Part shown: positions 8,791-63,470 of the stretch, piece by piece
Layout: each line of letters begins with the position of its first letter
Numbering within the stretch: position 1 is the first letter of the stretch
DNA from: Eledone cirrhosa
Lineage: Eukaryota
Direction of reading: 5' to 3'
Assembly: GCA_964016885.1 (NCBI GenBank)
Contig: OZ024749.1
Coordinates: forward strand, 18,166,001-18,230,000
Length of the DNA stretch: 64,000 nt
Translations under genes and position numbers: made by a program
The notes under the pieces: generated by a model
Told to the model about the DNA's origin: nothing
Database searches by the model: none
The model's input: the letters and a program-made list of their open reading frames with translations, nothing else

Positions 8791-9904
8791 ATTCTTAGCT
8801 AACCTACCTGAGATCCCACTACATCTCTTGTGTACCCATTGTTTGTATTTTGGACAGAGAATGGAATTTCTACCTACACCTTTCTAGCACACTGAGCAAG
8901 GCCATTTTTCTGAGGGGATCAGGGCCCTGTTTTCCCTTCTACTGATACTTGGCTGGCTAACCCAGACATAGTCCTAAACAAATGAAACACTGGTGGAGTC
9001 GTAGGGGTAATCTAAGTGACATACAGTATTTCTCGGGCATATTTTAAAATCTGATGGAGCCCATCACCTCTCTTGCCTGAACACAATTGAGATCTGAATA
9101 AAACTTCAAGTGAAATCAGATATTGTATGGATTCATATAGACTCGTAACTCCTGGTCTAAACACAGCCGATTTCTCCCAGAGAAGGATAGAAAAGAAGTA
9201 AGAAAAAGATATAGAGGATTGACTCCTACTAATAAAAAGATGGAAGTTAAACTGGTGTTGACATGTCATCAGGAGAGGAGATGATTGCTATGTTAGAAAG
9301 TCCTATCAGAATGAATTTTTCACTAAACTGCCATAGAGCAGACCTTCTAGAGATAGAAGGATAACATTTATAGAGCATGCTGGAATACCACTGTTTACAT
9401 TGGAGAGAATTACTCTGGACAGGAAAGTTTATATCTACAGTTTATCAATATAGAAATATAAAATTTGCACTGTTAAATCTATCTCTGCTTTTTAAGTATT
9501 CTCTATTATCTCATACTGTTTCTTTCTTATTTCAGAATACCAGATGACATTGGGATAAATTATTATTTTCAATCTGGGATTTATCATCATTTGAAGACTA
9601 AAACCTTTTAAACAGAACTTATATAACACTGTTTATATAAATCTATAGTTCAATTACTGTGAAATATTTCCTCAGAACTGAGTTTATTTTCTTCACTATG
9701 AGATGATTTTGTATTTTAACTAAACTTGGATGAAAGTTTGTATTATCTTCAGATATTAACTGAAATCACAGGTGAGGGAAATATAGAAGATATATTTTTT
9801 AGGAATATAATATAAAAAAATATTACAACAAAAATATTTGTATATTCTGTTGAAGAAGAAATTATAAATTGAGTGAAAAGGTTAAATGTGAAACACAATC
9901 GAAA

Positions 9905-10963
9905 ATGTTTAGTATTCCTGGTGAAATGACAAAGGTTGGAGAAGAGAAGCCATATCACTGCAATATCTGTGGTAAATCATTCAATAAACGAAGTACCTTA
10001 ACTACTCACAAAGTTATACATACAGGAGATGAGCCATATCATTGTGAGTTCTGTGGGATATCATTCTCACAATGTAGTGCCTTAACTAACCACTATCGTA
10101 TACATACAGGAGAGAAGCCATATCACTGTAATATGTGTGGCAAATCATTCTCTATAAATAGCACCTTAACTAGCCACAAACGTATACATACAGGAGACAA
10201 GCCATATAACTGTGATATCTGTGGTAAATCATTCTCTCTGAAAGGAAGCTTAACTTCTCACAAACATATACATACAGGAGATAAGCCATATCACTGTAAT
10301 ATCTGTGGTAAATCGTTCTCTCTGAAAGGAAGCTTAACTTCTCACAAACATATACATACAGGAGATAAGCCATATCACTCTAATATCTGTGGTAAATCAT
10401 TCTCTCGAAGTAATGCCTTAACTAGCCACAAACGTACCCATACAGGAGATAAGCCATATCATTGTGATATCTGTGGTATATCATTCACTAACTCTAGTAC
10501 CTTAACCTCTCACAAACTAATACATACAGGAGACAAGCCATATCACTGTGATATCTGTGGTAAAACATTCTCTGTAAGTGGTCACTTAACTAGACACAAA
10601 CGTATACATACAGGAGACAAGCCATACCACTGTGATATCTGTGGTAAATCATTCTCTGATAGTACCACCTTAACTAAACACAAACGTATACATACAGGAG
10701 ACAAGCCATATCACTGTGATATCTGTGGTAAATCATTCTCTCAACGTAGTGCCTTAACTAGCCACAAACGTACCCATACAGGAGACAAGCCATATCACTG
10801 TGATATCTGTGGTAAATCATTCTCTCAAAGTAGTGCCTTAACTAGACACAATCGTACCCATACAGGAGACAAGCCATATCACTGTGATATCTGTGGTATA
10901 TCATCCTCTGGGAAAAGTAGCCTAACTACTCACAAACTTAGACATGCTGAGGAGAAATCATAA
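9905..10963 (+). CDS. Tandem C2H2 zinc-finger protein, 12 fingers (finger 6 lacks its first Cys)
   Basis: Repeated 28-aa CxxC-12x-HxxxH units with TG(D/E)KPY linkers and an open frame. First ATG at 9905. Candidate splice acceptor TTTCAG ending 9535. Confidence 0.9.
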   Translation: MFSIPGEMTKVGEEKPYHCNICGKSFNKRSTLTTHKVIHTGDEPYHCEFCGISFSQCSALTNHYRIHTGEKPYHCNMCGKSFSINSTLTSHKRIHTGDKPYNCDICGKSFSLKGSLTSHKHIHTGDKPYHCNICGKSFSLKGSLTSHKHIHTGDKPYHSNICGKSFSRSNALTSHKRTHTGDKPYHCDICGISFTNSSTLTSHKLIHTGDKPYHCDICGKTFSVSGHLTRHKRIHTGDKPYHCDICGKSFSDSTTLTKHKRIHTGDKPYHCDICGKSFSQRSALTSHKRTHTGDKPYHCDICGKSFSQSSALTRHNRTHTGDKPYHCDICGISSSGKSSLTTHKLRHAEEKS

Positions 10964-16560: not shown

Positions 16561-17380
16561 ATTATTGATTTTATATATATATATATATATATATGGTATA
16601 AAAAAACCCCGAAAAATCAGTGATACATCTAGACTCCATTTATTACATGTTACAATTGTTTCGCCGGCAGGTAGCTCGAGACATGATCATTGTATGGATC
16701 TGGCTGATTCTACGGCTACAGGTTCTTTGGACACATGGACATCTTTCGGAGCAGATTTTCTCACTGGGGTGTAATCATCAAAAAACATTTTCCACTCTTG
16801 CCTTGCCATTGGTTGTTGATTTTCTACGTCATCATAAATTCTGGTCAGTATTTACTGCTACACAGGTCAGCAGCCATTCTCCGTCCGACACACTTCAATG
16901 GAACCATGCTGTATTTGGTATCTCACACGTCTGTTCACACTCACGAGTATGTACCCACACATACACACAAACACACGAATAGGCACACACACACACACAC
17001 ACACACACTCAGGCACATACACCTGCATACACATATGTACACACAGATGTGTAGGCACACACACTCTCTCCCTCTCTTACACATACCCAAGCACACCCAC
17101 ACCCAAAACTACAACACTACAGGTCTACTAGCGCCTGCCTCCACGGCCCTCACATCCTGTCTCACATGGGCCCACAAGGACACATATCGGCGTTCGGGCA
17201 CATCTGCACATATATACACAAGCACTCACAGACACATACATGGACACACATACGCACATACACACATATCCTTATGGGTAGGCAACAAAGACAGACACAC
17301 TTCTAAAGACATAAGTATTTTGGAGATTAGTATCAGTATATATATATATATATATTATCAAGAATGACAATAAATGCATG

Positions 17381-17900
17381 TGTTGAACAAAAGAACAACG
17401 ATGGTTACTAAATACTGTACGGCTTAATTCGGGATGTCTGTTTACAAACACACCGAGCATTATAATACATGTTCGGTGAATCCATACGTACATATATATA
17501 TGTGTGCATGTATATATATATATATATACATACTACTGTACGTCTGTATACATATATGTATGTACGTATACATACTTATATTTAAGTAACAGCCGTACTA
17601 AGAGTGAGAAATTAAATTTTGTTTCATTTTTTTCGTTTATCGTTTTCGGTGCGCCCGGCCGATTAACTCACTCGATATGCAAATTAGGCTGCTCAGTATA
17701 TACTTCCAGACGTTCAATCATCTGGCAGGAAGGTATACAGTGCTGACGATAGCTAATAAGCTTGAAACTAGTACAGCGTTTCTTTGTCAGTGTTGAACAA
17801 AAGAGCAACGATGGTTGCTAAACACTGTACAGCTTAATTCGGGATGTTTGTTTACAAACAAACCGAGCATTATAATAAATGTTCGGTAAATCCATGTGTA
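17381..17900 (+). mobile_element. HHR-containing non-coding unit (family A), ~410-bp period with ~110-bp terminal redundancy
   Basis: TGTTGAACAAAAG... repeats at 17381 and 17791. HHR CTGACGA..GAAACTAGTA at 17738-17778. Confidence 0.75.
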
Positions 17901-20963: not shown

Positions 20964-21069
20964 ATAATAATAAAATTGAAGACAAAAATCCAAAGAGGGC
21001 TCGATAAGGAAAATATATATCAAATATATAAGAACCGAAGAGCAAATATTTATTAAAATAACAGATTAA

Positions 21070-21120
21070 AGTTTAAGCAAAGAATCGCTGCTTTCACCCT
21101 TAACGGGATCTTCTGAAACT
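21070..21120 (-). ncRNA. HHR-like motif of PLE family 1, variant core CAGAAGA
   Basis: agttt-CAGAAGA-t.ccc(gttaa)ggg.t-GAAA-gca..tgc-TT-aaact. Identical copy at 35350-35400. Confidence 0.5.
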
Positions 21121-21931
21121 AACAAAGTCAATCTGTAGACGCAGAACTGGATATTTCAATAAACGTTGCAACCGGAGGAAGACAGGAAGACGATACTTTG
21201 GTTCATGGTGACGTTCGCTGGCAAAGAACGGGAAAAAACGAATAATACGTCATTAATAGGAGCGGTGAAAAACAATTACGCGCAAAGACAGGAGCACGTT
21301 TATGGTATAAAAGAGGTCGTAGACTAATGTTCTCTAAGTGGTGCATAGAGACGTTCTCTGGCAATGAACGAAAAAACGAAGATAATAAGTCATATGTGGA
21401 GCGTGGAGAACAATAGCACGCAAAAACAAAACCACGTAAATGGTATAGCAGAAGTTGTAGACTAAAATTCTAACTAGGAGACCGAATGAATCTCCGCTAC
21501 AGAGTTAAGAACAAAGTAAATAAATACAATACAGAAGTAATAGAAACAAATAAATACATACACGCAAACAGATACGTACATACACAAGCATACGCAAAAC
21601 CTTACCATAGGTATACAAAACCATGCACATATAAATATGTGTATGTGTGTATGCTTGTGTACAAATAAATAAATAATTATATAAACGTATATAAGTAAAA
21701 AAATACGTATATAACAAGCGCACACACATACCTACAAATAAATACACGAAGGTTCGGAGACGTAAGTCAGCTAAAACAAGAAGTACACATATACACACAC
21801 CCACCATACGTACGAACCTGCATACTCACGCAGACGCAAAACTCCCATATACACATAACCAAACCCTAAATACCAGAATATTATTACTATTTGGCTCCTT
21901 CGGTTGAGCACTCTACTGACTTATATTCATC

Positions 21932-24067
21932 ATGCAGAAACAACATCTGAATATTTCTACAAAGAACATACCCGTACCAAGCAGGAAAACATACCTAAAA
22001 CTCCTGATACAGAAAACAGACGCGTTCATTAAAAGGTTGCGTTGGCGTGCCTTTTATTTCGATAATCCGCGAAAAGCAGACAACAAACAGGACAAATTTG
22101 GATTTAAAACCTATAATAACCCTCCGTGGAACCCAGCATTGTTACCCTTCGAAAATGATGTCTTGGAGCTCATTCGGAGTATCAAATTTCGGAATAGGAG
22201 CAATTCCTTCCAGCAAGACCTGAAGAATAGAATTCGTTCTATTAAGGATTCTAACGCCGTGCACGTCCATTCCGACAAAACTGGCAACCTATATCAAGTG
22301 GAGCGCAGTACTTACCATCAACTACTACATAATGCTGTAACTAAGGATTACCGTAAAACTAATCGGTGCGTCATCAATGAAATCAACGATGCTGGGTTTA
22401 TGGGTTTAAAATCACATCTGATCTCAACATCCTGGACCGGACCGAACCTCTGGACCCTATCTCCCCCCACTTTACCCTGAAGGATCACAAATCCAATTTT
22501 CCGAACAACCCCTCTATTCGGCTTATTAACCCTACGAAGTCCGATTTAGGTAGACTTAGTAAAACGATTCTTGATAGAATTATACCTGAAATTAGAAGTT
22601 TGGCCCCTCTCGCACTGTGGAACAATTCTTTCGCGGTGATTGATTGGTTCAACGGCATATGTAACAAGGAACATTGCCGTTTTATCCAATTCGACATCAA
22701 CAATTACTACTCCTCCATCACTTTACCACTTCTCCTTAGAGCTATCAATTTCGCTAAAACACTCACAGTGGTTAAGGATTTCGAAGTTGATGTCATCCTT
22801 AATGCCCGAAAGTCGGTGATTAATTTCGACGACTCTATTTGGATTAAAAAAACCAATAGTACCCCATTCGACGTGAGTATGGGCGCCAGTGACTCTGCGG
22901 AGGTTACCGATCTTATTGGCCTTTTCCTTCTTTTCTCTATCAAGGACGAATTCCCCAACGCGGGCGGTGGTTTGTACCGTGACGATGGTCTTTTGACCAT
23001 GACTAAGTGCGGACCTCGTTCTTGCGACAGATTCAGAAAAGAACTCACAGCCTTCTTTAAAGGCTTCAACCTCTCTATACAGGTTGAGGCCAATCTCTCG
23101 GTCGTTAATTACCTCGACGTTACCCTCAATTTATTGAATGGGTTGTATTACCCGTATAGAAAGCCGAATGATACGCTTAATTACATAAGTAAGCATTCCA
23201 ACCATCCTGCCAGCATAACCAAGAATCTGGTAAAAAACGTTTCGTTGAGGCTTTCCCGTCTTTCCACCAACTAGCGGATTTTCAACGACCATTCCACTTA
23301 TTACAATGAAGCTCTTGCTCGAAGTGGATTTGTCGATAAGGTAGCATATACAGAGTACGAGAATAGACCTAGAAGAAATAGATCCCGTCGCATTATGGTT
23401 TAACCCACCATATAATATGGAGGTGGCCACACCATTAGCTAAGATCTTTCTTTCCCTTATTACGAAGCATTTTCCCCCTACACATAAATATAGTAAAATT
23501 TTTAATAGAAACACTATTAAAATTTCTTAGTCTACGACTCCTAACCTTGCACATAACATTACAGCTTCAAATTTAGCTAAACTACCTAGCCGTAGGAACA
23601 CGTGCAACCCTGTAGTTAGTACTAACTGTAATTGTAGGAATCGGGCTGATTGTCCCCTATCCGGGAAATGCCTCTTTAGTAACATTGTCTACAAATGTAA
23701 GGTTGTAACACCCACGTCCCGTAGGGCCTACATAGGGTTAACCGCCAATAGATTCAAGCAGCGTCTTTACATGCATACCCATTCTTTTCGTTACCCTCTA
23801 AGAAGGAATATGACGTCACTTTCAGCTTATATCTGGAGTCTAAAAGACAACCACACCCAATATAAGTTACACTGGGAGATCCTAGCTAGGGCTAGATCGT
23901 ATAACGGAAATAAAAGACCATGTGACCTCTGCGCCGCTGAGGCCCTGGAAATACTCTACGCCACAGACCACATCTTAAACAAAAGATCTGAGGCAATTTC
24001 GGCTTGTAAACATAAATTGCACAAAACTTTCCTGTATTACAGCCCCACGTTATACCCCAACGGATAG
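21932..24067 (+). pseudogene. PLE RT plus C-terminal GIY-YIG endonuclease (frameshifts, TAG stops)
   Basis: STKNIPVPS..FIKRLRWRAFYF, KDHK..RLINPTKSDLG, QFDINNYYSSI, DVSMGASDSAEV, GLYRDDGL, CNCR..CPLSGKC, IVY..YIG, CDLC..LNKRSE..CKH. Confidence 0.9.
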
Positions 24068-24962
24068 CACGATCTATACGTGGATATTTTACGTCTTGAT
24101 GTGGGAGCTAAGTATATGTTTTGTTTATTCCTTTACTTATTTGCATATGTAAGTATATATTACCCGTATGTTTTGTGAAGGTATGTATACCTTCTCGTAC
24201 GTATATTTGACTGTTATGGCGTATAATTTTTACATATTCTGGTATTTAGGGTTTGGTTATGTGTATATGGGAGTTTTGCGTCTGCGTGAGTATGCAGGTT
24301 CGTACGTATGGTGGGTGTGTGTATATGTGTACTTCTTGTTTTAGCTGACTTACGTCTCCGAACCTTCGTGTATTTATTTGTAGGTATGTGTGTGCGCTTG
24401 TTATATACGTATTTTTTTACTTATATACGTTTATATAATTATTTATTTATTTGTACACAAGCATACACACATACACATATTTATATGTGCATGGTTTTGT
24501 ATACCTATGGTAAGGTTTTGCGTATGCTTGTGTATGTACGTATCTGTTTGCGTGTATGTATTTATTTGTTTCTATTACTTCTGTATTGTATTTATTTACT
24601 TTGTTCTTAACTCTGTAGCGGAGATTCATTCGGTCTCCTAGTTAGAATTTTAGTCTACAACTTCTGGTATACCATTTACGTGGTTTTGTCTTTGCGTGCT
24701 ATTGTTCTCCACGCTCCACATATGACTTATTATCTTCGTCTTTTCGTTCATTGCCAGAGAACGTCTCTATGCACCACTTAGAGAACATTAGTCTACGACC
24801 TCTTTTATACCATAAACGTGCTCCTGTCTTTGCGCGTAATTGTTTTTCACCGCTCCTATTAATGACGTATTATTCGTTTTTTCCCGTTCTTTGCCAGCGA
24901 ACGTCACCATGAACCAAAGGATGGCCTGGAATTAAGAAAGATGATACATTTGCAAGGATCTA

Positions 24963-26209
24963 TACTCATTTCATGTTAAAACTCCCTCTAAACTCCGAAT
25001 GAGTTCCAAGACATCATTTTCGAAGGGTAACAATGCTGGGTTCCACGGAGGGTTATTATAGGTTTTAAATCCAAATTTGTCCTGTTTGTTGTCTGCTTTT
25101 CGCAGATTATCGAAATAAAAGAATCTCAAACATTCAACATTTCCAAAGGCTCAGCATCGGCAACAGCTCTCCAAAGAACTTGCTTCATTGTTTGGGATGA
25201 ATGCATTATGTCACATCGTGGAGTTCTAGATGTACTTGACCATACCCTCCAAGACATAAAAAACAATAGCATGTTCATGGGAGGAGTAACAGTTCTTTTT
25301 GCAGGAGATTTCTGTCAAATGGTGCCAGTTATCTCCAAAGGAACACAAGCTGATGAGGTCAATGCATGATTTAAAACATCATAACTTTGGAGAAATGTGA
25401 AAAAACTTCATCTTACAAGCAACATGAGAGTACATCTACGAGGTGATCATACAGCTGGTGAATTCTGAGAGGAGCTTCTTAAGATTGGTAATGAGATATT
25501 AACATTCAGCTACATGAAATTACATGTGATAGAATGGTACTTTCTTGTAAGGATCTTATGGATAAAGTATTTCCTAATTTATCTGTCAATCACACTGATA
25601 TAAACTGGCTATGTGAAAAGTTATACTGACTCCAACTAATGAAATGATTGATAAACTCAATCATGAACTTCTTTAAAAGTTAAAACACATCAGAAATGAT
25701 TTTGCGATCAACTCACACATCAGTCAATCAATACCATATTGAATTTCTGAACACACTTAAACCCACTGGGATGTCACAGCATAACTTGACACTAAAGCTG
25801 GGTGCTCCCATTATGTTGCTTAGGAATCTTTACCTACCTAGCCTGTGTAATGAAACTCACTTAATTGTTACTTTCCATGAAGCCCCATGTCCTAGAGGCA
25901 ACAATCATAACAGGTAGGCACAAAGGAGAAAATGTTTTTATTCTAAGAATTCCTCTCATACCTACAGCTGTTCCATTTGAATTTAAAAGGCTTCAGTGTC
26001 CAGTCAAACTAACTTTTGTTATTTCAATTAACAAATCTCAGGGTCAATCCCTCAAGGTAGTTGGACTTGATCTCTCTACTACATGTTTCTCTCATGGCCA
26101 CCTCTATGTTGGTTGCTCGTGAGTTGAAAGCAGTAACAATTTATTCATTTGGACACCAACAAAAAATTACACAATGAATATTGTTTACCCTGAGGTGCTT
26201 CAAGATTGA
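24963..26209 (+). pseudogene. Helitron-type PIF1 helicase relic
   Basis: THFMLKLPLN, IVWDECIMSH, GGVTVLFAGDF.Q, LKLGAPIMLLRNL, FKRLQCPVKL..INKSQGQSL..FSHGHLYVGCS, NIVYPEVL. Many stops. Confidence 0.85.
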
Positions 26210-46256: not shown

Positions 46257-47117
46257 CTAGCAGTAAAGCCCGGCGTTGCTCGGGGTCCCTCAGTAGCTGT
46301 GTTAAAGTTACAATGTTAAGTTTCTTTCTTGGCTTAAAAACTGTAGTGTCTACTGTGCAGACTTGCATGTGGTGTTTTGATTAATATTCCCTCAACCAAC
46401 AATATGCCTTATGAAGTTATGAAAACATAACGATAACCCGAATGTTATAACAAAAGAGGATGCTAGGGATAGAAACTGCACTGGTTATTTATTAACAAAG
46501 ATCGAAAATGTAAACACTCTGCAACGCAGAGAAAAACATTAGCGTAACAAATTATCAGTTATGTCTGTCTGCACGCCTAATTACCTCTCTGCACGACTGT
46601 CTGTCTGCACGCCTATATCACCTCTCTGCACGACTGTCTGTCTGCACGCCTATATCACCTCTCTGCACGACTGTCTGTCTGCACGCCTAACGACGAAATA
46701 TTTGCTTGTTTTACGTAGTCTTTAAATAGACTTGTTTTCAAGTAAAAATATTGTTTTAAAATGCTTTTAAATGGAAATGAAGCAAAACGGAAGCTTAGTG
46801 TTCGAACTGATGAATTTTGCAGGTCAATATTTTGCTGGCTCGACAACTGTCGTAAAGCCAGCGTAATTTTTTACGTAAGACGCTCAATGTAAACAGAACA
46901 AAGGGAAATAACTGATCACTTACGCTCAAAAATCGATACATTATATTCGATTTCGTCAGATAGGGCGGGTCAATTTGAAATATTTTTTTCCCGATGTCTT
47001 CGCTAGGGCTCAATGTACAAGTATAGCAATTTCGGTGCAATTCCGTGAGAGATTCTAAGAGAGATGTGTGCCAAAAATCGATAGACAGACAGACAACCAC
47101 AGTTTTATATATATAGA
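46257..47117 (-). mobile_element. Non-autonomous Helitron
   Basis: Minus strand: A|TC 5' end, 3' hairpin CCCG..CGGG (46269-46284), then CTAG|T. Internal ~37-bp tandem repeats at 46563-46690. Confidence 0.8.
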
Positions 47118-47311
47118 TAAGATCAAAAGATGTTTAAAAGAGTTCCATGTATTTCCATGTATTTCCATGCGCATTTCAAAAACAAATATCATCATCCAAT
47201 AGCATTTGCGTTTTCGTCAGATAAAATAGGGAGACATAATAGTGCAGTTTTAAATCAACATATTATTGCTTTATTGTACTACAATAAAACTTACCTCCTA
47301 CATATATAAAT

Positions 47312-47456: not shown

Positions 47457-47531
47457 TATATATATAAATATATATATATATAAATATATATATATATAAA
47501 TATATATATAATATATATATATATAAATATA

Positions 47532-47645
47532 TAAGTTGAAAAAAATGAAACGAAATTTCATTTCACACTCTTAGTATGGCACTTACTTAAATGTAAGTAT
47601 GTATGTATACGTACATACATATATGTATACAGACGTACAGTAGCA

Positions 47646-47733
<88 letters not shown>

Positions 47734-48172
47734 TATGCATACAGGTACACATACATATATGTACGCATCAGTTAGCCGACGTTTATTATAACGCCGGCCG
47801 CTTTTGTTCGTTTTTGTCAACAAAGCGAACAGCCTGAATTTATGCCATACGGTGTTAAGGCAACCACGTCACCTTTTGTTCAACACTGACACAGGAACGA
47901 TGTACTAGTTTCAAGCTTGTTAGCTATCATCAGCACCGTTTACCCATCTGCCAGATAGTTGAACGTTCGAAAGTATATACTTTCCTTATGAAAATTAACG
48001 GTGAGCAGCCTAATTGCATATTGAGTGAGTTAAATCGGTCAGGCATACCGAAAACGATAAGTTGAAAAAAATGAAAACGAAATTTCATTTCTCACTCTTA
48101 GTATGGCACTTACTTAAATGTAAGTATGTATGTATACGTACATACATATATGTATACAGACGTACAGTAGCA

Positions 48173-48260
<88 letters not shown>

Positions 48261-48422
48261 TATGCATACAGGTACACATACATATATGTACGCATCAGTT
48301 TAGCCGACGTTTATTATAACGGCGGCCGCTTTGTTGACAAACAAACGAGCAAAGCGGCCGGCGTTATAATAAACGTCGGCTAAACTGATGCGTACATATA
48401 TGTATGTGTACCTGTATGCATA

Positions 48423-48461
<39 letters not shown>

Positions 48462-48578
48462 GCATGCTACTGTACGTCTGTATACATATATGTATGTACG
48501 TATACATACATACTTACATTTAAGTAAGTGCCATACTAAGAGTGAGAAATGAAATTTCGTTTCATTTTTTTCACTTAT
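47532..48578. mobile_element. Family A: ~1.5 tandem units on - (period 526) joined to an inverted partial unit on +
   Basis: TAAGTTGAAAAAAATG repeats at 47532 and 48058. Inversion junction near 48340. Confidence 0.8.
47896..47940 (-). ncRNA. Minimal type I hammerhead ribozyme (family A)
   Basis: aacggtg-CTGATGA-t.agct(aaca)agct.t-GAAA-CTAG-TA-catcgtt. Confidence 0.75.
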
Positions 48579-48604
48579 ATATATATTTATATATATATAT
48601 TATT

Positions 48605-48653
<49 letters not shown>

Positions 48654-48660
48654 ATATATA

Positions 48661-48709
<49 letters not shown>

Positions 48710-48711
48710 AA

Positions 48712-49378
48712 TAGTCGAGGAATCTAGGAGCAGTTTAGGTATGATACATTTATTACTAATTATATCTAAATGTTTCTTCTCTCTTCATAATGTATTTTAA
48801 CTCTGATACTGGTTCAGTCTAATTCAACCGGATTGGTCTGTCCCAGTCATTCATTGAGCAACATCGGTAAGGTTGGCACCATTAACTCACGGTTGGGTGT
48901 GGATGCATTCATGTATATGTGTGTGTCCGCATGTATCTGTGTGTTTCTAAATATATTGTTCATAACTCCCTCTGGTCGAGTAATCTTTGAAGTGTGGTGA
49001 CTGCTGGAAAGCTGCCATTACTCATACTTCTCGTCTCCTTCACCACCTCTTCTACGGCTTCGATATAAATACCCCCTCCGCCTCCGTGGTATTTTCTTCG
49101 GGGTTATAAGAGGCTTAGCTCTGTTTCTCGACCGTTATATTGCGTGACTATCTCCCCCTCCGCCTTTTGGGATTCTTTCTCACGTCGTGTAGACGCGTTC
49201 TTGAATCTAGTAAAATGAGGTATCCTCTTGATAAGTCGGCAGACCTCGCAAGGACTCTATATCTTTATGATGTATTGTTTTTGTTTATGCCACGAAACTA
49301 CGTAGTCGAGGAATCTAGGAGCAGTTTAGGTATGATACATTTTATTACTAATTATATCTAAATGTTTCTTCTCTCTTC

Positions 49379-49383
<5 letters not shown>
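48712..49383 (+). mobile_element. HHR-containing non-coding unit (family B), 591-bp period with ~80-bp terminal redundancy, in (TA)n
   Basis: 48712-48791 is repeated at 49303-49383. Confidence 0.75.
49223..49312 (+). ncRNA. Type I hammerhead ribozyme, variant core UUGAUAA, long loop II
   Basis: tcctc-TTGATAA-gtcggca...tgccac-GAAAC-TACGTA-GTC-gagga. Confidence 0.6.
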
Positions 49384-49422
<39 letters not shown>

Positions 49423-49426
<4 letters not shown>

Positions 49427-49856
49427 TGCTACTGTACGTCTGTATGCATATATGTATGTACGTATACATACATACTTATATTTAAGTAAGTGCCGTATTA
49501 AGAGTGAGAAATGAAATTTCGTTTTCATTTTATTACAACTTATCGTTTTCGGTACGCCTGACCGATTTAACTCACTCGATATGCAAATTAGGCTGCTCAG
49601 CCGTTAATTTTCATAAGGAAAGTATATACTTTCGAACGTTCAACCATCTGGCAGAAGGGTATACGGTACTGACGATAGCTAACAAGCTTGAAACTAGTAC
49701 ATCGTTCCTGTGTCAGTGTTGAACAAAAAGGTGACGTGGTTGCCTTAACAACGTACGGCATAAATTCAGGCTGTTCAGTTTGTTTACAAACGGACAAAGC
49801 GGGCGTTATAATAAGCGTCCGCTAAACTGATGCGTACATATATGTATGTGTACCTG

Positions 49857-49860
<4 letters not shown>
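49423..49860 (+). mobile_element. Family A monomer bounded by (TA)n, HHR at 49663-49705
   Basis: Matches the reverse complement of 47532-48333 in a different permutation. CTGACGA..GAAACTAGTA. Confidence 0.8.
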
Positions 49861-49916
<56 letters not shown>

Positions 49917-50148
49917 TAAACGGAATAGAAAATGCTGAGAAATTGTTCACAGTTGAAAAATGGTTTAATTAGGAATAAAAGAGTATTAGTGATTGTATGG
50001 GTTAGTATTCAGTTGTGGTTCCTGTGTCAGTGTTGAACAAAAAGGTGACGTGGTTGCCTTAACACCGTACGGCATAAATTCAGGCTGTTCAGTTTGTTTA
50101 CAAACGAACAAAGCGGGCGTTATAATATATATATATATAAATATGTAT

Positions 50149-50375: not shown

Positions 50376-50420
<45 letters not shown>

Positions 50421-50716
50421 CTGAAATAAAATGAAAACGAAATTTCATTTCTCACTCTTAGTATGGCACTTACTTAAATGTAAGTATGTATGTATACGTA
50501 CATACATATATGTATACAGACGTACAGTAGCATGCACATATATATATATATATATATATATTGTTATACTTTGGGAGGGTCATGTTGCCAATAAGAAACA
50601 CACGCACCAGTTGCTTTCACTTCAATTTAATTTAATATATATTTATAAATTTACAAATTTATAAATTTCTGGTTGGTTGGTTGGTTCCACAACCAGATAG
50701 TTGTTTATATATATAT

Positions 50717-50761
50717 AGTCATAGTTCTTTCGTCACACACTCTGTGACCTCTTCAGTGACT
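50717..50761 (-). ncRNA. Hammerhead ribozyme in the inverted pLTR
   Basis: agtca-CTGAAGA-g.gtcaca(gagtg)tgtgac-GAAA-GAAC-TA-tgact. Confidence 0.7.
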
Positions 50762-51833
50762 GGGGATTTCTTTCTTCGTTTCTGTGCCTTTCCTTTCTTC
50801 TATCCTACGCCATTTTGTTTGTGTGTGGGTTGCGTGCTCAGTTTGCGCATGCGCCACATCCGGGTGTCTGTGTGTGTTTGTGTTCATTTTTCTATTTTTC
50901 TATTTATATTTGTTTATTTATTTATTTATTTATTGTTGGTTGGTTGTTTGTTCTATGTGTGTGTGTGTTTTCATTTTGTCTTGTGTGTGTTTTCATTTTG
51001 TGTGTGTTTTCAATTGTAAGTTGTTTGTTCTATGTGTGTGTGTGTTTTCATTTTGTCCTTAATTGTAAGTTGTGATGTTGCTGTTCCACTCATATTTTCT
51101 ATTTAATTTTGGTTTTAATTCTTTTATGCTTACTGCCTCTGTAATTTGCCTAAACATTGCGTCTTTCTTGTGTGTGGATTCTATTTTTATTTCTATGCTC
51201 TCTAATTTACCCCTGTGTTCTATCTTAGCATGTTGGTAGAGCACAGATGATTCTTTACTATCTTGGAGGTCTCGCCAGTGTTCATTTATTCGTTCCCCTA
51301 TACTACGAGCTGTCTCACCTATGTACACTATATTTTAAATATAGTGTACATAGGTGAGACAGCTCGTAGTATAGGGAAACGAATAAATGAACACTGGCGA
51401 GACCTCCAAGATAGTAAAGAATCATCTGTGCTCTACCAACATGCTAAGATAGAACACAGGGGTAAATTAGAGAGCATAGAAATAAAAATAGAATCCACAC
51501 ACAAGAAAGACGCAATGTTTAGGCAAATTACAGAGGCAGTAAGCATAAAAGAATTAAAACCAAAATTAAATAGAAAATATGAGTGGAACAGCAACATCAC
51601 AACTTACAATTAAGGACAAAATGAAAACACACACACACATAGAACAAACAACCAACCAACAATAAATAAATAAATAAACAAACAAATATAAATAGAAAAA
51701 TAGAAAAATGAACACAAACACACACAGACTCCCGGATGTGGCGCATGCGCAAACTGAGCACGCAACCCACACGCAAACAAAATGGCGTAGGATAGAAGAA
51801 AGGAAAGGCACAGAAACGAAGAAAGAAATCCCC

Positions 51834-51878
51834 AGTCACTGAAGAGGTCACAGAGTGTGTGACGAAAGAACTATGACT
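51834..51878 (+). ncRNA. Hammerhead ribozyme in the 5' pLTR
   Basis: Same motif as 50717-50761. Confidence 0.7.
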
Positions 51879-52011
51879 ATATATATATAAACAACTATCT
51901 GGTTGTGGAACCAACCAACCAACCAGAAATTTATAAATTTGTAAATTTATAAATATATATTAAATTAAATTGAAGTGAAAGCAACTGGTGCGTGTGTTTC
52001 TTATTGGCAAC

Positions 52012-55000
52012 ATGACCCTCCCAAAGTATAACAATATCGGTTTCAACACACGATTTCAGATAAAGAATCTTGCTAAACAAATTCAGAAACGAAATATCGT
52101 AAGCCTTAGCCAGGCTAACAAGATACTGAAAACCACCATGTTCTGTTGTCTACGAAAAACCATAACATCTCGACAACTACACTTCATAAAACTGTGCACC
52201 ACTTCTAGAATCTACACCAACACCATCAATACCGACGTTAGAAGATTACAACTCACCAAAAAACAAGCAGATAGGCTAAAACGAACTTTAATTCTAAACA
52301 TAAAAAATAAAAAAGATCTATAGAGAATTAAGTCATCAAGAAAAACTAAAGCGTAACCTAATAGATGAAATATCTAAAATCACCACACCAGCAGAAAAAC
52401 TAACATTTATAAGCCTTATACGCCCCGAAGAACAGTACATTACTCAAGAATGTAATAAGCACTTTAACAGAAAATTAAAGTGGCTTAAACAGGCAAAGCT
52501 AAATCGGGATACTATCGAGTATACCAATAGATATCCCGACAAAATTGACGGTATCAACATGGCCGACACCTCATTATCTGAAGAGTTCAACAATGAAAAT
52601 ACCAACATTTATGGAAACACGGAAATAGATAATAATGAAATGTCTGTGTTACGTCTGCCACCCAAATTTGCGACATTCAAGAAGGTAAATATGATTAGTT
52701 GTCTGTCAGAAATAGAAAAATCATTTACGAAACTACGCTGGAGCATCAAAAACAAAAACAAAAGCAACAATATACGCACACACATATACAACACACATCC
52801 CAACAACAACAGACACACAGACACAAACAACAATAACAACAACAATAGCAACATACCCAGATACAACACCAACAATAGCAACATACCCAGATACAACAGA
52901 CACGCAGACACAAACAACAATAACAACACACACGGAGACAACAATAACAACAACACACACATCAACAACAACACAACAGCAACATACCCAGATACAACAA
53001 CAACAGACACGCAAACACAAACAACAATAACAACACACACAACAACGATAACACACACACACACGGAGACAACAACACACATCAACAACAACACACATCA
53101 ACAACAACAACACACACACATTCAATGCCTCTCACCACCACTACAATCTTAACAAACACACAGACACAGAAAACAAGTAATGACAGTAGCACAGAAATCA
53201 GAGAAATAAGAGAAAGTAATAGGATTAAAAGGAGTAGGGAGACTAAGGACAAAGAGAATAACCAAGACGAACACACAGACACACAAAATAGGGTAGATAA
53301 CAACATTGAGCCAGTGGAAAGAGACAGGAGTAATTATGAGAGACACAGAAACAACCATGAAGCTGAGGCTGCTGCTGTTGGTGGAAATAGAAACAACACA
53401 ACTAACAATAGCACTAGTACACATAAAGCAGCAGCCTGGAACTCTCCGTTTTATAACCCCTCCGATAAATCATTCGACCTACGACGAGTCCACGCCACGA
53501 CTTTGCCATTTAACAAACGCACGCAGTTGCCGTCGCAGGTCGATGAACAAACAGAAGCACAATTTAGTATAGCTAAATCCGAACTTAGAAATATTATAGA
53601 ACAGTATAGCAAGAAGCATAATAGAATAGAGGCCCAGCAACTGGGAGAAGAATCTGCAAATGGCTTGCGTAAGCTCATGCAGCGCTCGCGTAATGGAGAG
53701 ATAGCATGCTTTCCAACAGACAAGTCTGGCAGAATGTCGGTTGACAGCCTGCCAAACTACATCCAGGCAATGCAACCCCACATCACTAACACAAGAGAGG
53801 TAACACCACAGGAGCATGAGGATAGAGAAAAAACCCTCAATGCCCATATGGTGATGTGGACAAATATAATGCAGCCCAACAAAAGGACTGCCAACAACTT
53901 CCAGGCCTGGAACAATGACGTGCCGGCGTTGTATGGGCTTCGAAAAGACCATAAAACGGGCTGGGACCCTGTCGCGGGACCACCAACACGGCCAGTCTGT
54001 GGGGCTAACATTGCTAGTAACTACAGACTGTCCTACTTCCTCTCCCTGATCATACGCCCCATCATTGAGATGTCCCCAGATGTGTGTGACAGCACGGAGG
54101 ACCTCCTCAGCAGAATCGGCGCGGGTAACCGATCTGGGGACCTAACAAACTGCATAATAGGCAGTATGGATGTTGTGTCCCTGTATCCATCTATTGACGT
54201 GGATTTTGCTGTGGAGAAATGCGTCGAAATGATCAGCGAGAGCAAGGTTGAGTTCCGTGGGATTGATACCAGTGAGCTGGGACATCTACTTAAGCTTACC
54301 CATAGTAATAGTTACCTAGACACTTATGACCTTAGGAACCTGTGCCCTACAAGACCAGCAAGAGGCAGACCACCTACCATTACCTCAATGGCCAAGAAAA
54401 CCCACACAGATAGATGGAACGGGTGGACCAGAGCCATACGGACACCCGAAAACCACGATGAACTGAAGAAAATGATTGCACATGCGGTAGGGGCCAGCAT
54501 AAAATTAACCCTTAAGGAACATATGTTCAAATTTAATGGTAAAACATATGCCCAAGAGGAAGGAGCAGCCATTGGTGTTAGCATTGCAGGCGACATAGCT
54601 AACTTGTTCATGGTATGGTGGGACAGTAGACTTAAACAAAAACTTAATGAACAATTAGAAGACAGCTTAACCCTGATAATGTACTCCCGCTACGTAGATG
54701 ATATAAACATCGTAGTTAAGACACCCCCACTAAAGAACAGTCAGGAACCAGAGAAAAACACAATGGAAAGCATCCAGCAAATAGCAAACTCCATCCACCA
54801 GAGCATTAGAGTTACTATAGACTACCCAAGTAGACACCCCAACCATCGATTACCTGTACTAGACACAGAGCTCTGGTTAGATACTATTAACACCAAAAAC
54901 AAATCCTCCATTCCCATTATGCCAAACCCATGACTTCCTAACATCTGATCCACCGAAACCCGGCCATTTCGGACCATACCAAAATCAACATACTGATTGC

Positions 55001-55820
55001 GGATTTGGTACGGGTGATGAGAAATGTGTCCCGCATGTGCAACCCCGAAGAACTAGAGAGACACATACAACACTTCATCCACCGTATGCAGTTCTCTGGC
55101 TACAATCAGAGAGATAGAATCAGAGTGTATAAAGGAGCCAGAACCAAATGGGAAAAAATGGTAAATAATGACATAAATGGGACCTGCCCCTTGTATAGGA
55201 GCAAATTTTGGAATAGAATAGAAAGAACTAAGAACAAGGCCAATAGAATAAACTCATGGTATGATAGCAATAAATACCAGAGTGTAATGTTCATCAATAC
55301 AACCCCTAGAGGCGAACTAGCCTACAAATTTAGAAGGGCCCTAAAGAAACATAATCTCAATATTAAGATAGTAGAAAGACCTGGTACCTCCGTAAAAACA
55401 CTTATTAGCAAGACATACCCGTTCCAAAGACCCTCATGTATAGATAAGAAATGTATAACCTGTAAAATAAGCCCCCATATTAACTGTAAAACTAGAAATG
55501 TAGTATATAGCATAAGATGTACTGAAGGACAATGTAGAAACAAAAATATAGTGTACATAGGTGAGACAGCTCGTAGTATAAGGGAACGAATAAATGAACA
55601 CTGGCGAGACCTCCAAGATAGTAAAGAATCATCTGTGCTCTACCAACATGCTAAGATAGAACACAGGGGTAAATTAGAGAGCATAGAAATAAAAATAGAA
55701 TCCACACACAAGAAAGACGCAATGTTTAGGCAAATTACAGAGGCAGTAAGCATAAAAGAATTAAAACCAAAATTAAATAGAAAATATGAGTGGAACAGCA
55801 ACATCACAACTTACAATTAA
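52012..55820 (+). pseudogene. PLE RT plus GIY-YIG endonuclease (few frameshifts/stops; Asn/Thr-rich insert)
   Basis: LPPKFA, TDKSGR, LYGLRKDHK, RPVCGA, SMDVVSLYPSI, GAAIG..IANLFM, RYVDDI, LPVLDTEL, NVVYSIRC..VYIGETARS..RINEH. Confidence 0.9.
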
Positions 55821-56117
55821 GGACAAAATGAAAACACACACACACATAGAACAAACAACTTACAGTTGAAAACACACACAAAATGAAAACACACACAAGA
55901 CAAAATGAAAACACACACACACATATAACAAACAACCAACCAACAATAAATAAATAAATAAACAAACAAATATAAATAGAAAAATAGAAAAATGAACACA
56001 AACACACACAGACACCCGGATGTGGCGCATGCGCAAACTGAGCACGCAACCCACACACAAACAAAATGGCGTAGGATAGAAGAAAGGAAAGGCACAGAAA
56101 CGAAGAAAGAAATCCCC

Positions 56118-56162
56118 AGTCACTGAAGAGGTCACAGAGTGTGTGACGAAAGAACTATGACT
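56118..56162 (+). ncRNA. Hammerhead ribozyme in the 3' pLTR
   Basis: Same motif as 50717-50761. Confidence 0.7.
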
Positions 56163-56375
56163 ATATATATATAAACAACTATCTGGTTGTGGAACCAACC
56201 AACCAACCAGAAATTTATAAATTTGTAAATTTATAAATATATATTAAATTAAATTGAAGTGAAAGCAACTGGTGCGTGTGTTTCTTATTGGCAACATGAC
56301 CCTCCCAAAGTATAACAATATCGGTTTCAACACACGATTTCAGATAAAGAATCTTGCTAAACAAATTCAGAAACG

Positions 56376-56442
<67 letters not shown>

Positions 56443-56507
56443 TACAGGTACACATACATATATGCACGCATCAGTTTAGCGGACGCTTATTATATATACA
56501 TTTATAT

Positions 56508-57048: not shown

Positions 57049-57053
<5 letters not shown>

Positions 57054-58814
57054 CAAAGTACCAAATAAGGATGAACGTGAAAAACTGAATACAGATGCCT
57101 CTTGTATAATGCATGAACTAGACATTGAAAATAAAACACAACCCTTCATGCCAAGGAAACCTAAGATTAATATGAAGCATCACAAAAGAAACTTTGAAAA
57201 TGATTTACCAGTCTAAATCTTACCATCTAAATCTGACCTGGACAGACTTAGTAAAAATATTCTAGACAGAATAATACAACAAATTAAGAATTTACCTAAT
57301 TTATCTTACTTAAAATTATGGAAAGGGACTAGTGAGGTTATCGATTGGTTTAAAGAAATTAAATATAACTATAATAATAAGTTTATTCAGTTGGATATTG
57401 CTAACTACTACTCATCTATCACTCCTAATCTACTGAATAAGGCACTAACTACGCATTTAAACATTCAGACCTAACTAGCAATGAAATGCACATTATATTA
57501 TCGGCACGGAAAACATTAATAGAATTTAATAACCAACTAGGGTAGATAGAAATAATAATTTTGACTTCAGACTCAGCTCAGGTAACAAACCTTGTGGGCC
57601 TATTTATAATTAATTCTCTACATAGAAAAATACCAGGTGTAACCGGAGGCTTATATCGTGACGACATGCTTTTACTTATAGAAAATAATAGCTGTGAACT
57701 CAATAGAAAAAGAAAACAAATTATACAATTTTTTAATTACCTTAATCTAAAAGTAGAAATAGAGAATAACCATAAAATAGTCAATTTTCTAGATGTAACA
57801 CTAAATCTCAACACATGTCTTCATTATCCATTTCACAAACTAAATGAGAACTTAGATTATGTCAATTTTAACTCTAATCACCCCAGATCCGTTAAAAATA
57901 CTATAGTGAACTCTGTACAAGAAAGAATTTCAAGAATTTCATCGAATACGAATATATTTGATGAAAAAGCGCATTATTACAACGAAGCGATAGGTAGAAC
58001 TGGGTATAGAAATAAAATTAAATACATCGATAATAATAATAATATAAAAACTAACCAAAATAATAACAACTTTAATTATGGTAACAATTTTAACAACTAT
58101 AATAGAAAACATTACAATAATTCCGAAAGCCGAAAAAGAAATAGAACTAGGAATATATTATGGTTCGCTCCTCCTTTCTCACTAAATATTAAAACCCCTA
58201 TTGCTAAACTATTCTTTAAAGCTCTTGACAAACGCTTCCCTAGAACACATAGATATTACTCAATTTTTAATAGACATACTATAAAATTAACTTACTCTTC
58301 CACCAAAAATTTAGCGCAAAATATTAATAGAATTAATAATAGAAATTTAAAACCTAACCAAAATACCAATAATAACCCAAGCAATATTCAATCGAATAAT
58401 TGTAACTGTAGAAATAAATCCAACTGTCCGTTAAATAACAACTGCTTAGCTAAAAATGTAGTTTATAATTGTAATGTTAAAACGAATTTAAATTCATTTA
58501 ATTATGTCGGTTCCACCTCCACAGAGTTTAAATCCCGCTTCAATAATCATAAAAATTCTTTTACAGATCCAAACAAAAAATCTAGCCTATTATGGGACCT
58601 AAAACGAGATAATGTTGAATATTCGCTGATTTGGAATATTATTTCATAAGCTACTCCTTTTAATTCCTCTTCAGAAAATTGCGATCTTTGTATTGAGGAA
58701 ATATTCTTTATATTAAAGACCAAAAATTCCCTTAATTTAAGGAATAATTTATTCAGTTGCTGCAGACATAGATTGAACTCAACGTTTAAATATAAATATA
58801 AATTTAAAATGTAG
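57049..58814 (+). pseudogene. Naiad-type PLE 3, 5'-truncated RT plus GIY-YIG
   Basis: PSKSDLDRLSKNILDRI, QLDIANYYSSI, GLYRDD, NFLDVTLNL, SNHP, WFAPPFS, CNCRNKSNCPLNNNCL, VVY..YVGST, CDLC, CRH. Confidence 0.88.
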
Positions 58815-60510
58815 TATAATTAATTAAGTAATTTGGTTAATATATGAAACCTGTCGATAAATCATTAGATTCCTTCACCCTTTTCATTTTCTTTGGTTAA
58901 GTACTCAAGTATAAATAAATTTTCTTCCTAAATATAAATATAAATACAATAAACTATTCTAGAAAAGTTTATCCTTTCAATATCTTGAGTAAAATATACG
59001 TAAGATAAATTTCTATACTAAATATATTAAACATATTATTTTAACTTAAAATATTCTATAATATTTAAAAATATTTTAATATTTTGATATTTGTAGAATT
59101 CTTTTGTTTTTTAAGTTATATTGATATAATATTTTATTTACATTTTATTAGGTTTACTTTTATTCTGATAGCTTCTCATAATTTTCAAAAGTTTATCCTT
59201 TCAATATCTTGAATAAAATATACGTAAGATACATTTCTATACTAAATCTATTAAACATATTATTTTAGCTTAAAATATTCTATAATATTTTAAAATATTT
59301 TAATATTTTGATATTTGTAGGATTCCTTTGTTTTTAGGTTATATTGATATAATTATATTTCCAATATATAATCCTTTTGTATTTTATATACTCAATTATA
59401 CTATGTAATATATTGATGTATACTTATCTCTATACGACTAAGTATGTATGTATGTATGTGTATTAACATACATATGCATGTGTTGTATGAATTTTTATGA
59501 ATATATGGCTGTCTGTATATATGCATGAGTGACGCATGTCTACCAATTGGGCGAAGATGCACACACATGTTTATATATGTATATGTAAGAATTGTGTGTG
59601 TACATGTACATGTGTACCCATGCAATTTGATTGCAGATATGCATAATTTAACAGCCATAAATGCATGAAAGTTAATCCTATATATTTATATATATATACT
59701 AAAAATTTTTTATTTAATAACACAAGGAATATATAGTAGTAATAAAAAAAATCATTTATGCTTTGTATGTATATATTATATGCGGAAGTAGATATAGTGT
59801 GTATTTTCTGAGTGTGTGTGTGTATATATATATATTTATGTATTTTTGCGTATATGTACGTGCTATATGATAGGTAATTTCTCAAGCAATATATATATTT
59901 CGTAATGTTTAAATTCCAATTTTTAATATATTGATCTCAATTTTTAAACTAAATATCTAATCATAACTAAACAATGATTAATTTCTCATATTATATATGT
60001 ATATTCCATTCATGAATATTAATATTTCTAATTTTATTTATTCATTTCATCTCAATTATTAACTCAACTTAATATGACATGACTTAAGGTTTTCGTTCTC
60101 TCCCCCTCTCTCTATCTCTATATTTCTCTCTCTTGATTTTTTCTCTGTCTGGTGGTTGGATATCTCTCTGTTGTTTTTCTCTGTTTTCTTTCTTTCTTTT
60201 CTCTTTCTTCTTTTTCTTTATTTATCTCTCCCTTTCTTTTCTCCACTTTTATCTCTCTCGGTTTCTCTCTCCGTCTTTTTCCGTCTCCTTAAAACAACGA
60301 CTTACTAAAATAAAGAAACCACTATCCTGATGTCTTCCAAAAGTAACGGTCGCATTTTGAAAGCGTACGTCAATGTTTATTTATAAAACTGGTATATATT
60401 GTATTTTGTCTGATGAAGGCATACCATAATTTAACATGGTATCCTTGAAATATGTATAATGAAATAAATATGGTTTTATAAATATAGTTTCCATTTATTA
60501 ATATCGTATA
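58815..60510 (+). mobile_element. Probable long 3' UTR of PLE 3, with ~225-bp tandem duplication (58963/59188) and terminal HHR
   Basis: Continuous AT-rich sequence from the ORF end to an HHR and (TA)n. Confidence 0.55.
60403..60465 (+). ncRNA. Minimal type I hammerhead ribozyme
   Basis: attttgt-CTGATGA-agg.ataccat...atggtat.cct.t-GAAA-TATGTA-TA-atgaaat. Inverted copy at 63288-63350 (CTGACGA). Confidence 0.65.
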
Positions 60511-60653: not shown

Positions 60654-60669
60654 TATATATATGTATATA

Positions 60670-61114
60670 TAAACGGAAAAAATGAAACGAAATTTCATTT
60701 CCCACTCTTAGTACGGCTGTTACTTAAATATAAGTATGTACACGTACATACATATATGTATACAGACGTACAGTAGTATGTATATATATATACATACATG
60801 CACACATATATATATGTACGTATGGATTCACCGAAAATTATTATAATGCTCGGTGTGTTTGTAAACAAACATCCCGTATTAAGCCGTAGTGTCTAGCAAC
60901 TATCGTTGCTCATTTGTTCAACACTGACAAAGGAACGCTGTACTAGTTTCAAGCTTATTAGCTATCGTCAGCAACGTATACCTTCCTGCCAGATTGTTGA
61001 ACGTATATACTTACTTTATGCATATTAACGGCTGAGTAGCCCAATTTGCATATCGAGTGAGTTAATGGACCGGGTGCACCGAAAACGATAAACGGAAAAA
61101 ATGAAACGAAATTT
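60670..61114 (-). mobile_element. Family A unit (period 419), HHR at 60935-60977
   Basis: TAAACGGAAAAAATGAAACGAAATTT at both ends. acgttg-CTGACGA..GAAACTAGTA-cagcgt. Confidence 0.8.
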
Positions 61115-61672: not shown

Positions 61673-63242
<1,570 letters not shown>

Positions 63243-63470
63243 TATACGATATTAACAAATGGAAACTATATTTATAAAACCATATTTATTTCATTATACA
63301 TATTTCAAGGATACCAAGTTAAATTATGGTATGCCTTCGTCAGACAAAATAGTTTCCATTTGTTAATATCGTATATCTACTCCAAATAATTGTCGAGTGC
63401 TTTATATCAGTTATAAAAATATTTGCTTGTTGTATCCCAACAATTTAAATAGAACTTTTGCATAAATATA
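63243..63470. mobile_element. Rearranged terminus of the PLE 3 family (inverted HHR segment plus direct continuation)
   Basis: 63243-63351 is the reverse complement of 60402-60510. From 63351 the sequence restarts at AGTTTCCATTT.TTAATATCGTATA. Confidence 0.7.

Follow-up and report, generated by a model that had tools for sequence, protein, structure and literature searches.

Insertion ends point to PLE copying of a high-copy hammerhead retrozyme in Eledone cirrhosa

The genome of Eledone cirrhosa (3.0 Gb) contains a high-copy, non-coding repeat, very probably a hammerhead retrozyme mobilised by a PLE reverse transcriptase/endonuclease. Its insertions end at two fixed points, as those of PLEs do, and PLEs are therefore likely to copy the element. 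A fuller proposal, to which we give a probability of about 60% as a whole, is that this PLE-copied retrozyme probably uses a circular RNA as template and likely has a promoter of its own. The analysis started from a window of TA-rich DNA (the whole stretch of 64,000 nt) and was extended to family copies elsewhere in the genome. The insertion evidence for PLE mobilisation of a retrozyme is unusually direct.

Copies in the window were recovered by self-comparison and by mapping on the unit at 49424-49856, and their features are shown in Table 1. All seven retrozyme pieces listed in a first-pass annotation were found again, and the periods of 410, 526 and 419 bp were reproduced from copy overlaps. 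One hammerhead core per complete copy was confirmed, at 17743 (+), 47933 (−), 49669 (+) and 60971 (−), with stem II AGCT/AGCT, stem III ACTAGT and a GTA site. The unit is indeed devoid of ORFs: the longest Met-started stretches in the four copies have 36-82 amino acids, and the 82-residue stretch crosses a TA tract. The pieces at 50416-50535 and 56445-56494 are a single copy, as had been proposed; a PLE of 5.8 kb has split it within the TA tract. Because no copy in the window has two ribozymes, none could release a monomer alone.

Other parts of the annotation had to be revised. The sequences at 47531-48333 (−) and ~48330-48578 (+) exist, but they are the two arms of a single inverted insertion and not separate copies. 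The piece at 49424-49856 had been viewed as a monomer bounded by (TA)n; however, the (TA)n tract lies within the unit, and the 466-nt units of subfamilies C and D lack it, so that the sequence spans the interval from one internal TA tract to another and is not a natural monomer. Stem I, reported to stay paired, is fully paired in two of the four window ribozymes, while the one at 49669 has one mismatch beside the cut site and the one at 17743 has two.

Table 1. Retrozyme copies, their sequence motifs and PLEs in the window
Feature	Position	Strand	Remarks
Focal insertion, left arm, subfamily A2	47531..48333	-	period 526, ~1.5 units; (TA)n follows the 3' end at site 2
Focal insertion, right (inverted) arm	48330..48578	+	left-arm haplotype; 3' end likewise at site 2
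Type I hammerhead motif, focal left arm	47897..47939	-	no stem I mismatch; cut predicted after 47903
U6-like upstream motif, focal left arm	48010..48020	-	one base missing
Subfamily A unit flanked by two internal TA tracts	49424..49856	+	reference unit for mapping
Small hairpin with 3'-end site 1 as its loop	49471..49489	+	putative reverse-transcription start
'Tail' of ~60 nt, site 1 to site 2	49484..49543	+	site 2 after 49543
Motif like the -78 element of host U6, U6atac and MRP genes	49580..49592	+	
TATA-like box, 43 nt past the U6-like motif	49623..49628	+	predicted transcription start 49653-49658
Type I hammerhead motif, reference unit	49663..49705	+	one stem I mismatch; predicted cut after 49699
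Retrozyme fragment	50018..50127	+	begins 4 nt past the cut site
Split copy, 3' part with site 2 end	50416..50535	-	PLE inserted in the TA tract of the copy
Split copy, 5' part	56445..56494	-	partner piece of 50416..50535
Older subfamily B copy	17380..17900	+	hammerhead core 17743-17773 (stem I mismatched twice); period 410; 3' end away from sites 1 and 2
Subfamily B copy	60669..61114	-	hammerhead core 60941-60971; period 419; 3' terminus at site 2
Neptune-like EN+ PLE with disrupted frame	50562..56381	+	different hammerhead of its own, two arms, 60-nt tail; candidate type of mover
Hydra-like PLE families, two	20976-25126; 57050-60510, 63200-63351		second with hammerhead-like motif at 60410 (+) and 63343 (-)

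Other repeats occur near the focal insertion. Decayed copies of another hammerhead motif, with a long stem II and a palindromic stem III, are found at 47150-47230 (−) and 46920-46965 (−), and intact-looking versions at other loci; they represent a second ribozyme repeat family that adjoins the focal TA tract. At 48712-49387, flanked by TA tracts and two retrozyme copies, lies a non-coding element with a period of 591 nt and an 85-nt direct repeat, possibly another non-autonomous PLE.

When the genome was searched with the hammerhead core pattern, at least 40,658 matches were obtained, compared with 23 for a control pattern. A 31-mer near the 3' end of the unit matched 31,627 times and one exact 36-mer of the family 727 times. 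Copies numbering in the tens of thousands make the family a considerable share of the E. cirrhosa genome, and variants of it are present in contigs from four sequencing runs. Units of 410-530 nt form dispersed copies and arrays of up to 31 units, and were classified into subfamilies A (several), B, C, D and E. In an alignment of eight representative units, identity was 83% between A and B, 61% between A and C, and 97% between C and D. Five blocks of at least six invariant nucleotides persist in this alignment across subfamilies 61% alike, and both 3'-end sites described below are among them. Subfamily E (G000:C1:95645108-95681966) has a GTC cut site and lies inside a higher-order repeat of 2,817 nt, where mutations affect most ribozyme cores. 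No cephalopod description of the family was found in the literature searched, although supplements, Repbase or Dfam may hold it under another name; the words ribozyme, retrozyme and hammerhead are absent from the main text of an octopus repeat annotation (PMC13282606).

The ends of the insertions were then mapped. In loci L031-L090, for which the ribozyme was the sole selection criterion, two sites ~60 nt apart account for 43 of the 47 terminal 3' ends; sites 1 and 2 received 14 and 13 of 30 ends in subfamily A, 6 and 3 of 10 in B, and 2 and 5 of 7 in C/D. The 79 5' ends of the same sample are scattered over the unit, from position 16 to position 409. A second map used 96 anchors from the first 100 listed 3'-pattern matches: 25 ended at site 1, 35 at site 2 and 5 elsewhere (hence 60/65 ends at the sites), while 31 continued. 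In this map, ends upstream of the anchor are invisible and several anchors may share an insertion. Among all family loci examined, 145 of 149 3' ends fall at the two sites, a sample that overlaps with the previous two. Site 1 is predicted to be the loop of a small conserved hairpin; site 2, 59-71 nt beyond it, is a U-rich stretch predicted to be single-stranded. Most terminal ends in both maps pass into TA repeats. No LTR structure was detected in the end maps, and no terminal inverted repeats of fixed length were found in family copies.

Random circular permutation of the copies is ruled out by the fixed 3' ends in three end maps. The circular permutation claimed in the first-pass annotation thus holds for the 5' ends, which are variable, but not for the 3' ends. 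The annotation had also argued that copies sharing fixed ends would contradict its reading; 3' ends are shared in this manner, but 5' ends are not.

A further regularity was seen in 33 two-armed insertions. In 29 of them one arm ends at site 1 and the other at site 2; two are of the 1+1 type, one is 2+2 and one has an unclassified end. Such pairing, found in 29 of the 32 classified cases, yields p ~1e-6 against independence. The focal insertion of the window is the sole 2+2 case.

EN+ PLEs produce partial tandems and inverted, 5'-truncated copies with a tail mostly at one end and a bias for (TA)n (Craig 2021 preprint; PMC8557442). Their tail has been explained as the stretch between two internal reverse-transcription starts, both target strands being nicked and extended (PMC11167929). 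The Neptune-like PLE of the window is built in the same way, with a tail of 60 nt. Dual fixed 3' ends, a tail on one arm, 5' inversions and (TA)n targets support the view, already put forward in the annotation, that a PLE enzyme moves this retrozyme-type unit with a type I hammerhead. Poseidon PAc (PMC11167929) and Neptune, Hydra and Naiad elements (PMC8557442; PMC4209133) resemble it in partial tandems, 5' inversions, the tail at one end, AT-rich or (TA)n targets and a small hammerhead with a palindromic stem III. Unlike them, the retrozyme is devoid of a reverse transcriptase or endonuclease ORF, and its tail has ~60-70 nt, compared with the 30-40 nt reported for PLEs.

The same end maps bear on the possibility that the family is a satellite or a DNA-mediated repeat (unequal exchange, Helitron or MITE type) whose ribozyme motif is a chance occurrence or a relic. 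In favour of this idea, arrays reach 31 units and show traces of local duplication, and hairpins are numerous. However, dispersed copies insert into TA targets, begin at random points but have fixed 3' ends, and obey the 1+2 rule; they lack fixed-length terminal inverted repeats, and the ribozyme covaries. This explanation is largely refuted by the end maps and can account for later array growth only; as an account of the family we consider it scarcely tenable.

Another conceivable explanation is that the copies are pLTR or tail fragments of one autonomous PLE, in which case no independent element would exist. PLE insertions are mostly 5'-truncated and have hammerheads in their pLTRs (PMC4209133), and Xenopus retrozymes are related to pLTRs (10.64898/2026.07.22.740005). 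Yet in all mapped arms and arrays the sequence past site 2 is the next unit and never an ORF, PLE-coding pieces near retrozyme copies lack a fixed junction to the unit, and the PLEs of the window have other ribozymes and lack the promoter motif described below. We therefore regard this explanation as very improbable, while descent of the retrozyme from a pLTR is possible.

PLEs do coexist with the retrozyme. One Neptune-like and two Hydra-like families are found in the window and also near other retrozyme copies; the clade names rest on linker and DKT motifs described in PMC8557442. The Neptune-like element is young, with terminal repeats 99-100% alike, sits in the TA tract of a retrozyme copy and carries a minimal hammerhead at ~51835-51880 and in its repeats. 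Its end also flanks retrozyme copies at loci L002/L026, L024 and L098. A Pfam search gave a weak RVT_1 match for one of seven PLE pieces, plus one spurious match. No ORF combining a reverse transcriptase with GIY-YIG was found in retrozyme units.

A partner PLE was searched for in several ways. Among window PLEs and the genome loci examined, no terminal sequence common to retrozyme and PLE was detected, and comparison of window PLE proteins with the loci examined yielded no partner. The window PLEs have other ribozymes or none that could be seen, and the U6-like motif is absent from the two PLE termini scanned. The Neptune-like PLE resembles the retrozyme in tail length and in a short junction motif only, and a fold comparison of the tails gave nothing. 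Hammerheads with a longer stem II and the same stem III gave 326 matches (control, 56); 13 loci inspected out of 30 were family variants or unrelated, and no partner was among them. Hence, the mover is identified by PLE type, not by family. Non-autonomous Chlamys elements of the MRC1 type are also non-coding, form pLTRs and make multicopy head-to-tail insertions (PMC8557442). In contrast to the Eledone family, the Chlamys elements generally have a 3' sequence in common with an autonomous family, and most are described without canonical hammerheads (PMC8557442); for the Eledone retrozyme such a partner was not found.

Every unit carries a predicted self-cutting RNA. In 11 hand-picked hammerhead motifs, 92.3% of cells are paired, 7 of 13 pairs show two-sided change and the core is invariant. 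This covariation check, which the first-pass annotation had proposed, gave a score attained in 0 of 500 shuffles; the signal reflects few independent events between subfamilies. Stem changes compensate between hammerhead subfamilies that are only 61% alike. In 244 motifs the base preceding the cut is A (191), T (29) or C (24), and never G. Stem III consists of two pairs plus the palindrome, and two-pair palindromic stems of this kind have been described as requiring a dimer (PMC4209133). In subfamilies A and B, stem II has U.U as its basal pair, which is also the case in axolotl HHR_Amex2 (PMC7229834). An Rfam scan of the window revealed no hammerhead among the 150 matches listed out of 168, those listed being low-complexity and miRNA-like. 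Long perfect hairpins at 2100-2225 and 3840-3925, probably MITE-like, are the source of the top spurious miRNA matches.

Four units folded as circles gave z values of −7.0 to −13.1 (25 shuffles each). The predicted folds contain a long, interrupted helix that prolongs stem I by pairing the first 30 nt past the cut with the region before the ribozyme. In fold predictions this helix is assembled from different sequence in A/B and in D. It would keep the ends of a cut monomer together, and it would also be able to form in a linear precursor. Counting against the proposal as a whole, only one of nine Xenopus retrozyme dimers was cleaved in vitro (10.64898/2026.07.22.740005).

Insertions also contain information about the RNA that was copied. 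In the 96-anchor map, 59 arms reach the cut site; six end within 15 nt of it and 53 pass through. End rates in the flanking intervals are 5/64 and 5/53, and no pile-up is therefore seen. A few arms do begin near the cut site (window position 50018, loci L024 and L027). A self-cleaved linear monomer was rejected as the main template since 5' ends do not pile up there. Copying that passes the cut site without end pile-up indicates that the template is either a circle or an uncut multimer. Fixed 3' ends are compatible with a circle because the PLE enzyme begins internally at two fixed sites (PMC11167929).

Homogeneity of the units within an insertion was also examined. Substitutions within an array amount to 0-2.9 in six young arrays and 6.5-17.5 in four older ones, whereas arrays belonging to one subfamily group differ from each other by 12-43. 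Overlap was sufficient in 52 multi-unit insertions out of 122 from A and B; only 29 of 512 differences between units of an insertion lie at common polymorphisms, and in 26 of the 52 a rare allele is common to all units. Such homogeneity argues against jumping between different RNAs and would fit copying of one circle, and of a uniform multimer too. The 31-unit array shows recurring variants, shared between units, in a partial higher-order pattern, which suggests that growth probably took place after insertion. Long arrays were accordingly rejected as proof of rolling-circle copying in the case of this 31-mer.

The main competitor of a circular template is therefore an uncut linear multimer transcribed from tandem arrays. 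In this scenario the element is likewise a non-autonomous one mobilised by PLEs, the ribozyme trims or regulates the RNA, and circles are absent or a by-product. An uncut multimer accounts equally well for fixed ends, junction passage and tandem arms. Long homogeneous arrays exist as possible sources and could equally yield homogeneous insertions. Ribozyme cleavage was dispensable for the PLE studied in vitro, whose protein accepted unprocessed RNA and used uncut RNA as main substrate (PMC11167929), and the Chlamys elements mentioned above give multicopy head-to-tail insertions without canonical hammerheads (PMC8557442). On the other hand, the ribozyme core and the NUH rule are kept across subfamilies, and purely destructive cleavage would cost templates. 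The predicted end-clamping helix appears to have been rebuilt from different sequence, and rare alleles in all units characterise half of the multi-unit insertions (26/52). Moreover, related retrozymes build up as circular RNAs in mussel, coral and axolotl in vivo (PMC7229834). We consider the uncut multimer unlikely, if far from negligible, and lean only slightly towards a circular template; the DNA is compatible with both.

The unit also harbors a candidate promoter. An octamer-like motif is conserved between A/B and C/D units, and the same motif is found in three types of host U6 promoter and in the U6atac and RNase MRP promoters, where it occupies −77 to −79 and a TATA box lies at −30. It is missing from 12 U1 loci and from the three U2 loci displayed. 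A matrix built from the five host Pol III promoters, which themselves score 17-21 bits, gave 20.2, 20.2 and 16.0 bits for three units, values reached in 0 of 300 shuffles each. Scores were 2.1-9.4 in seven U1/U2 regions and ~3 in two window PLE termini. The motif precedes 215 of 269 ribozyme occurrences and is followed by a TATA-like box, which puts the predicted start 11-16 nt ahead of the ribozyme core in A/B and 23-27 nt ahead of it in D. With a start just ahead of the ribozyme, a unit would drive the next unit.

Certain traits depart from host genes. The distance between motif and TATA box is 43-44 in the units and 47-49 in host Pol III genes; spacing of promoter elements is tightly kept in insects (PMC1761439). 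Sense-strand T4 runs occur in all seven units listed, and T5-T7 runs in four of them. The T-runs argue against plain Pol III transcription; leaky Pol III or Pol II may be involved. By spacing and by T-runs, the element is not a plain U6-type gene. The distal motif of host U6, U1 and U2 genes was not seen in retrozyme units on inspection by eye. Both the U6-like motif and the TATA box lie inside predicted hairpins; the motif is conserved in spite of mismatches with its predicted pairing partner in the hairpin, a hint of selection at the DNA level. Altogether, the internal U6-like promoter is probably functional. Nothing relevant to mollusc U6 promoters was found among the literature matches listed.

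Hammerhead repeats with an internal promoter have precedents in newt satellite 2 and schistosome Sm-alpha (cited in PMC2220036, PMC6765202). The newt promoter is of the snRNA type and uses Pol II, the schistosome promoter uses Pol III and sits at the 3' extremity of the cleaved monomer, where it serves the following unit (same citations). Unlike these, the motif of the putative Eledone promoter matches host type-3 Pol III promoters (U6, U6atac, MRP) and not U1/U2, with shorter spacing.

Side observations were made on the host genes. Host U1 and U2 have a different proximal motif and a TATA-like box, and a distal motif near −260 to −290 is common to U6, U1 and U2. A promoter insertion was found in four of 12 U6 loci plus two more, and in a tandem U6 cluster the promoter of some units is interrupted around the TATA box by ~180 nt of inserted sequence. 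Five of six U6atac matches look like promoterless copies; one copy without promoter lies directly behind a (TA)n tract and was possibly retro-copied into a TA target.

These elements can be assembled into a cycle as follows:

(i). The U6-like promoter of a unit would start an RNA 11-16 nt before the ribozyme and read through tandem units.

(ii). Two ribozymes paired via the palindromic stem III are predicted to excise a monomer of 410-530 nt, whose ends would be clamped by the long stem I extension; ligation would follow.

(iii). As judged from the insertion ends, a PLE protein would nick both strands of a TA microsatellite and start copying internally, from site 1 on one strand and from site 2 on the other. 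Copying would pass the ribozyme junction, cover between one and several units and end at random; joining of the two cDNA arms would then give insertions with one or two arms, only one arm bearing the tail.

(iv). Some insertions may later grow by local tandem duplication.

In its boldest form, the proposal depicts a self-contained RNA parasite of ~40,000 copies which has captured a U6-type promoter of the host and directs it at its ribozyme, is cut and circularised, and is pasted by PLEs on both target strands simultaneously from two fixed internal starts. We regard this combined reading as tentative and on balance doubtful. If it were true, each two-armed insertion would be a natural record of the unsolved integration of PLEs on a circular template.

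The element has the sequence characters of animal non-LTR retrozymes and appears to work like a non-autonomous PLE. As described in PMC7229834 and 10.64898/2026.07.22.740005, animal non-LTR retrozymes are non-coding tandem units of a few hundred bases with one type I hammerhead each, low GC and arrangements from monomers to long arrays, and they co-occur with PLEs, all of which is also true of the Eledone family. In the text available from both sources, PLEs are named as strong candidate movers on the grounds of co-occurrence and resemblance to pLTRs alone; neither dual 3' ends at fixed sites, tails and two-armed insertions nor a promoter are described there, and a cephalopod example is likewise missing. 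The Eledone insertions thus bear on who copies animal retrozymes, from which RNA, and what transcribes them. They also bear on PLE integration, of which nicking and internal initiation alone have been demonstrated in vitro: the rule of one site per arm names two exact start points, besides the target and the predicted transcription start.

As a minor observation on the remainder of the window, a C2H2 zinc-finger array with ~11.5 repeats of 84 nt was detected at 9854-10963 (+).
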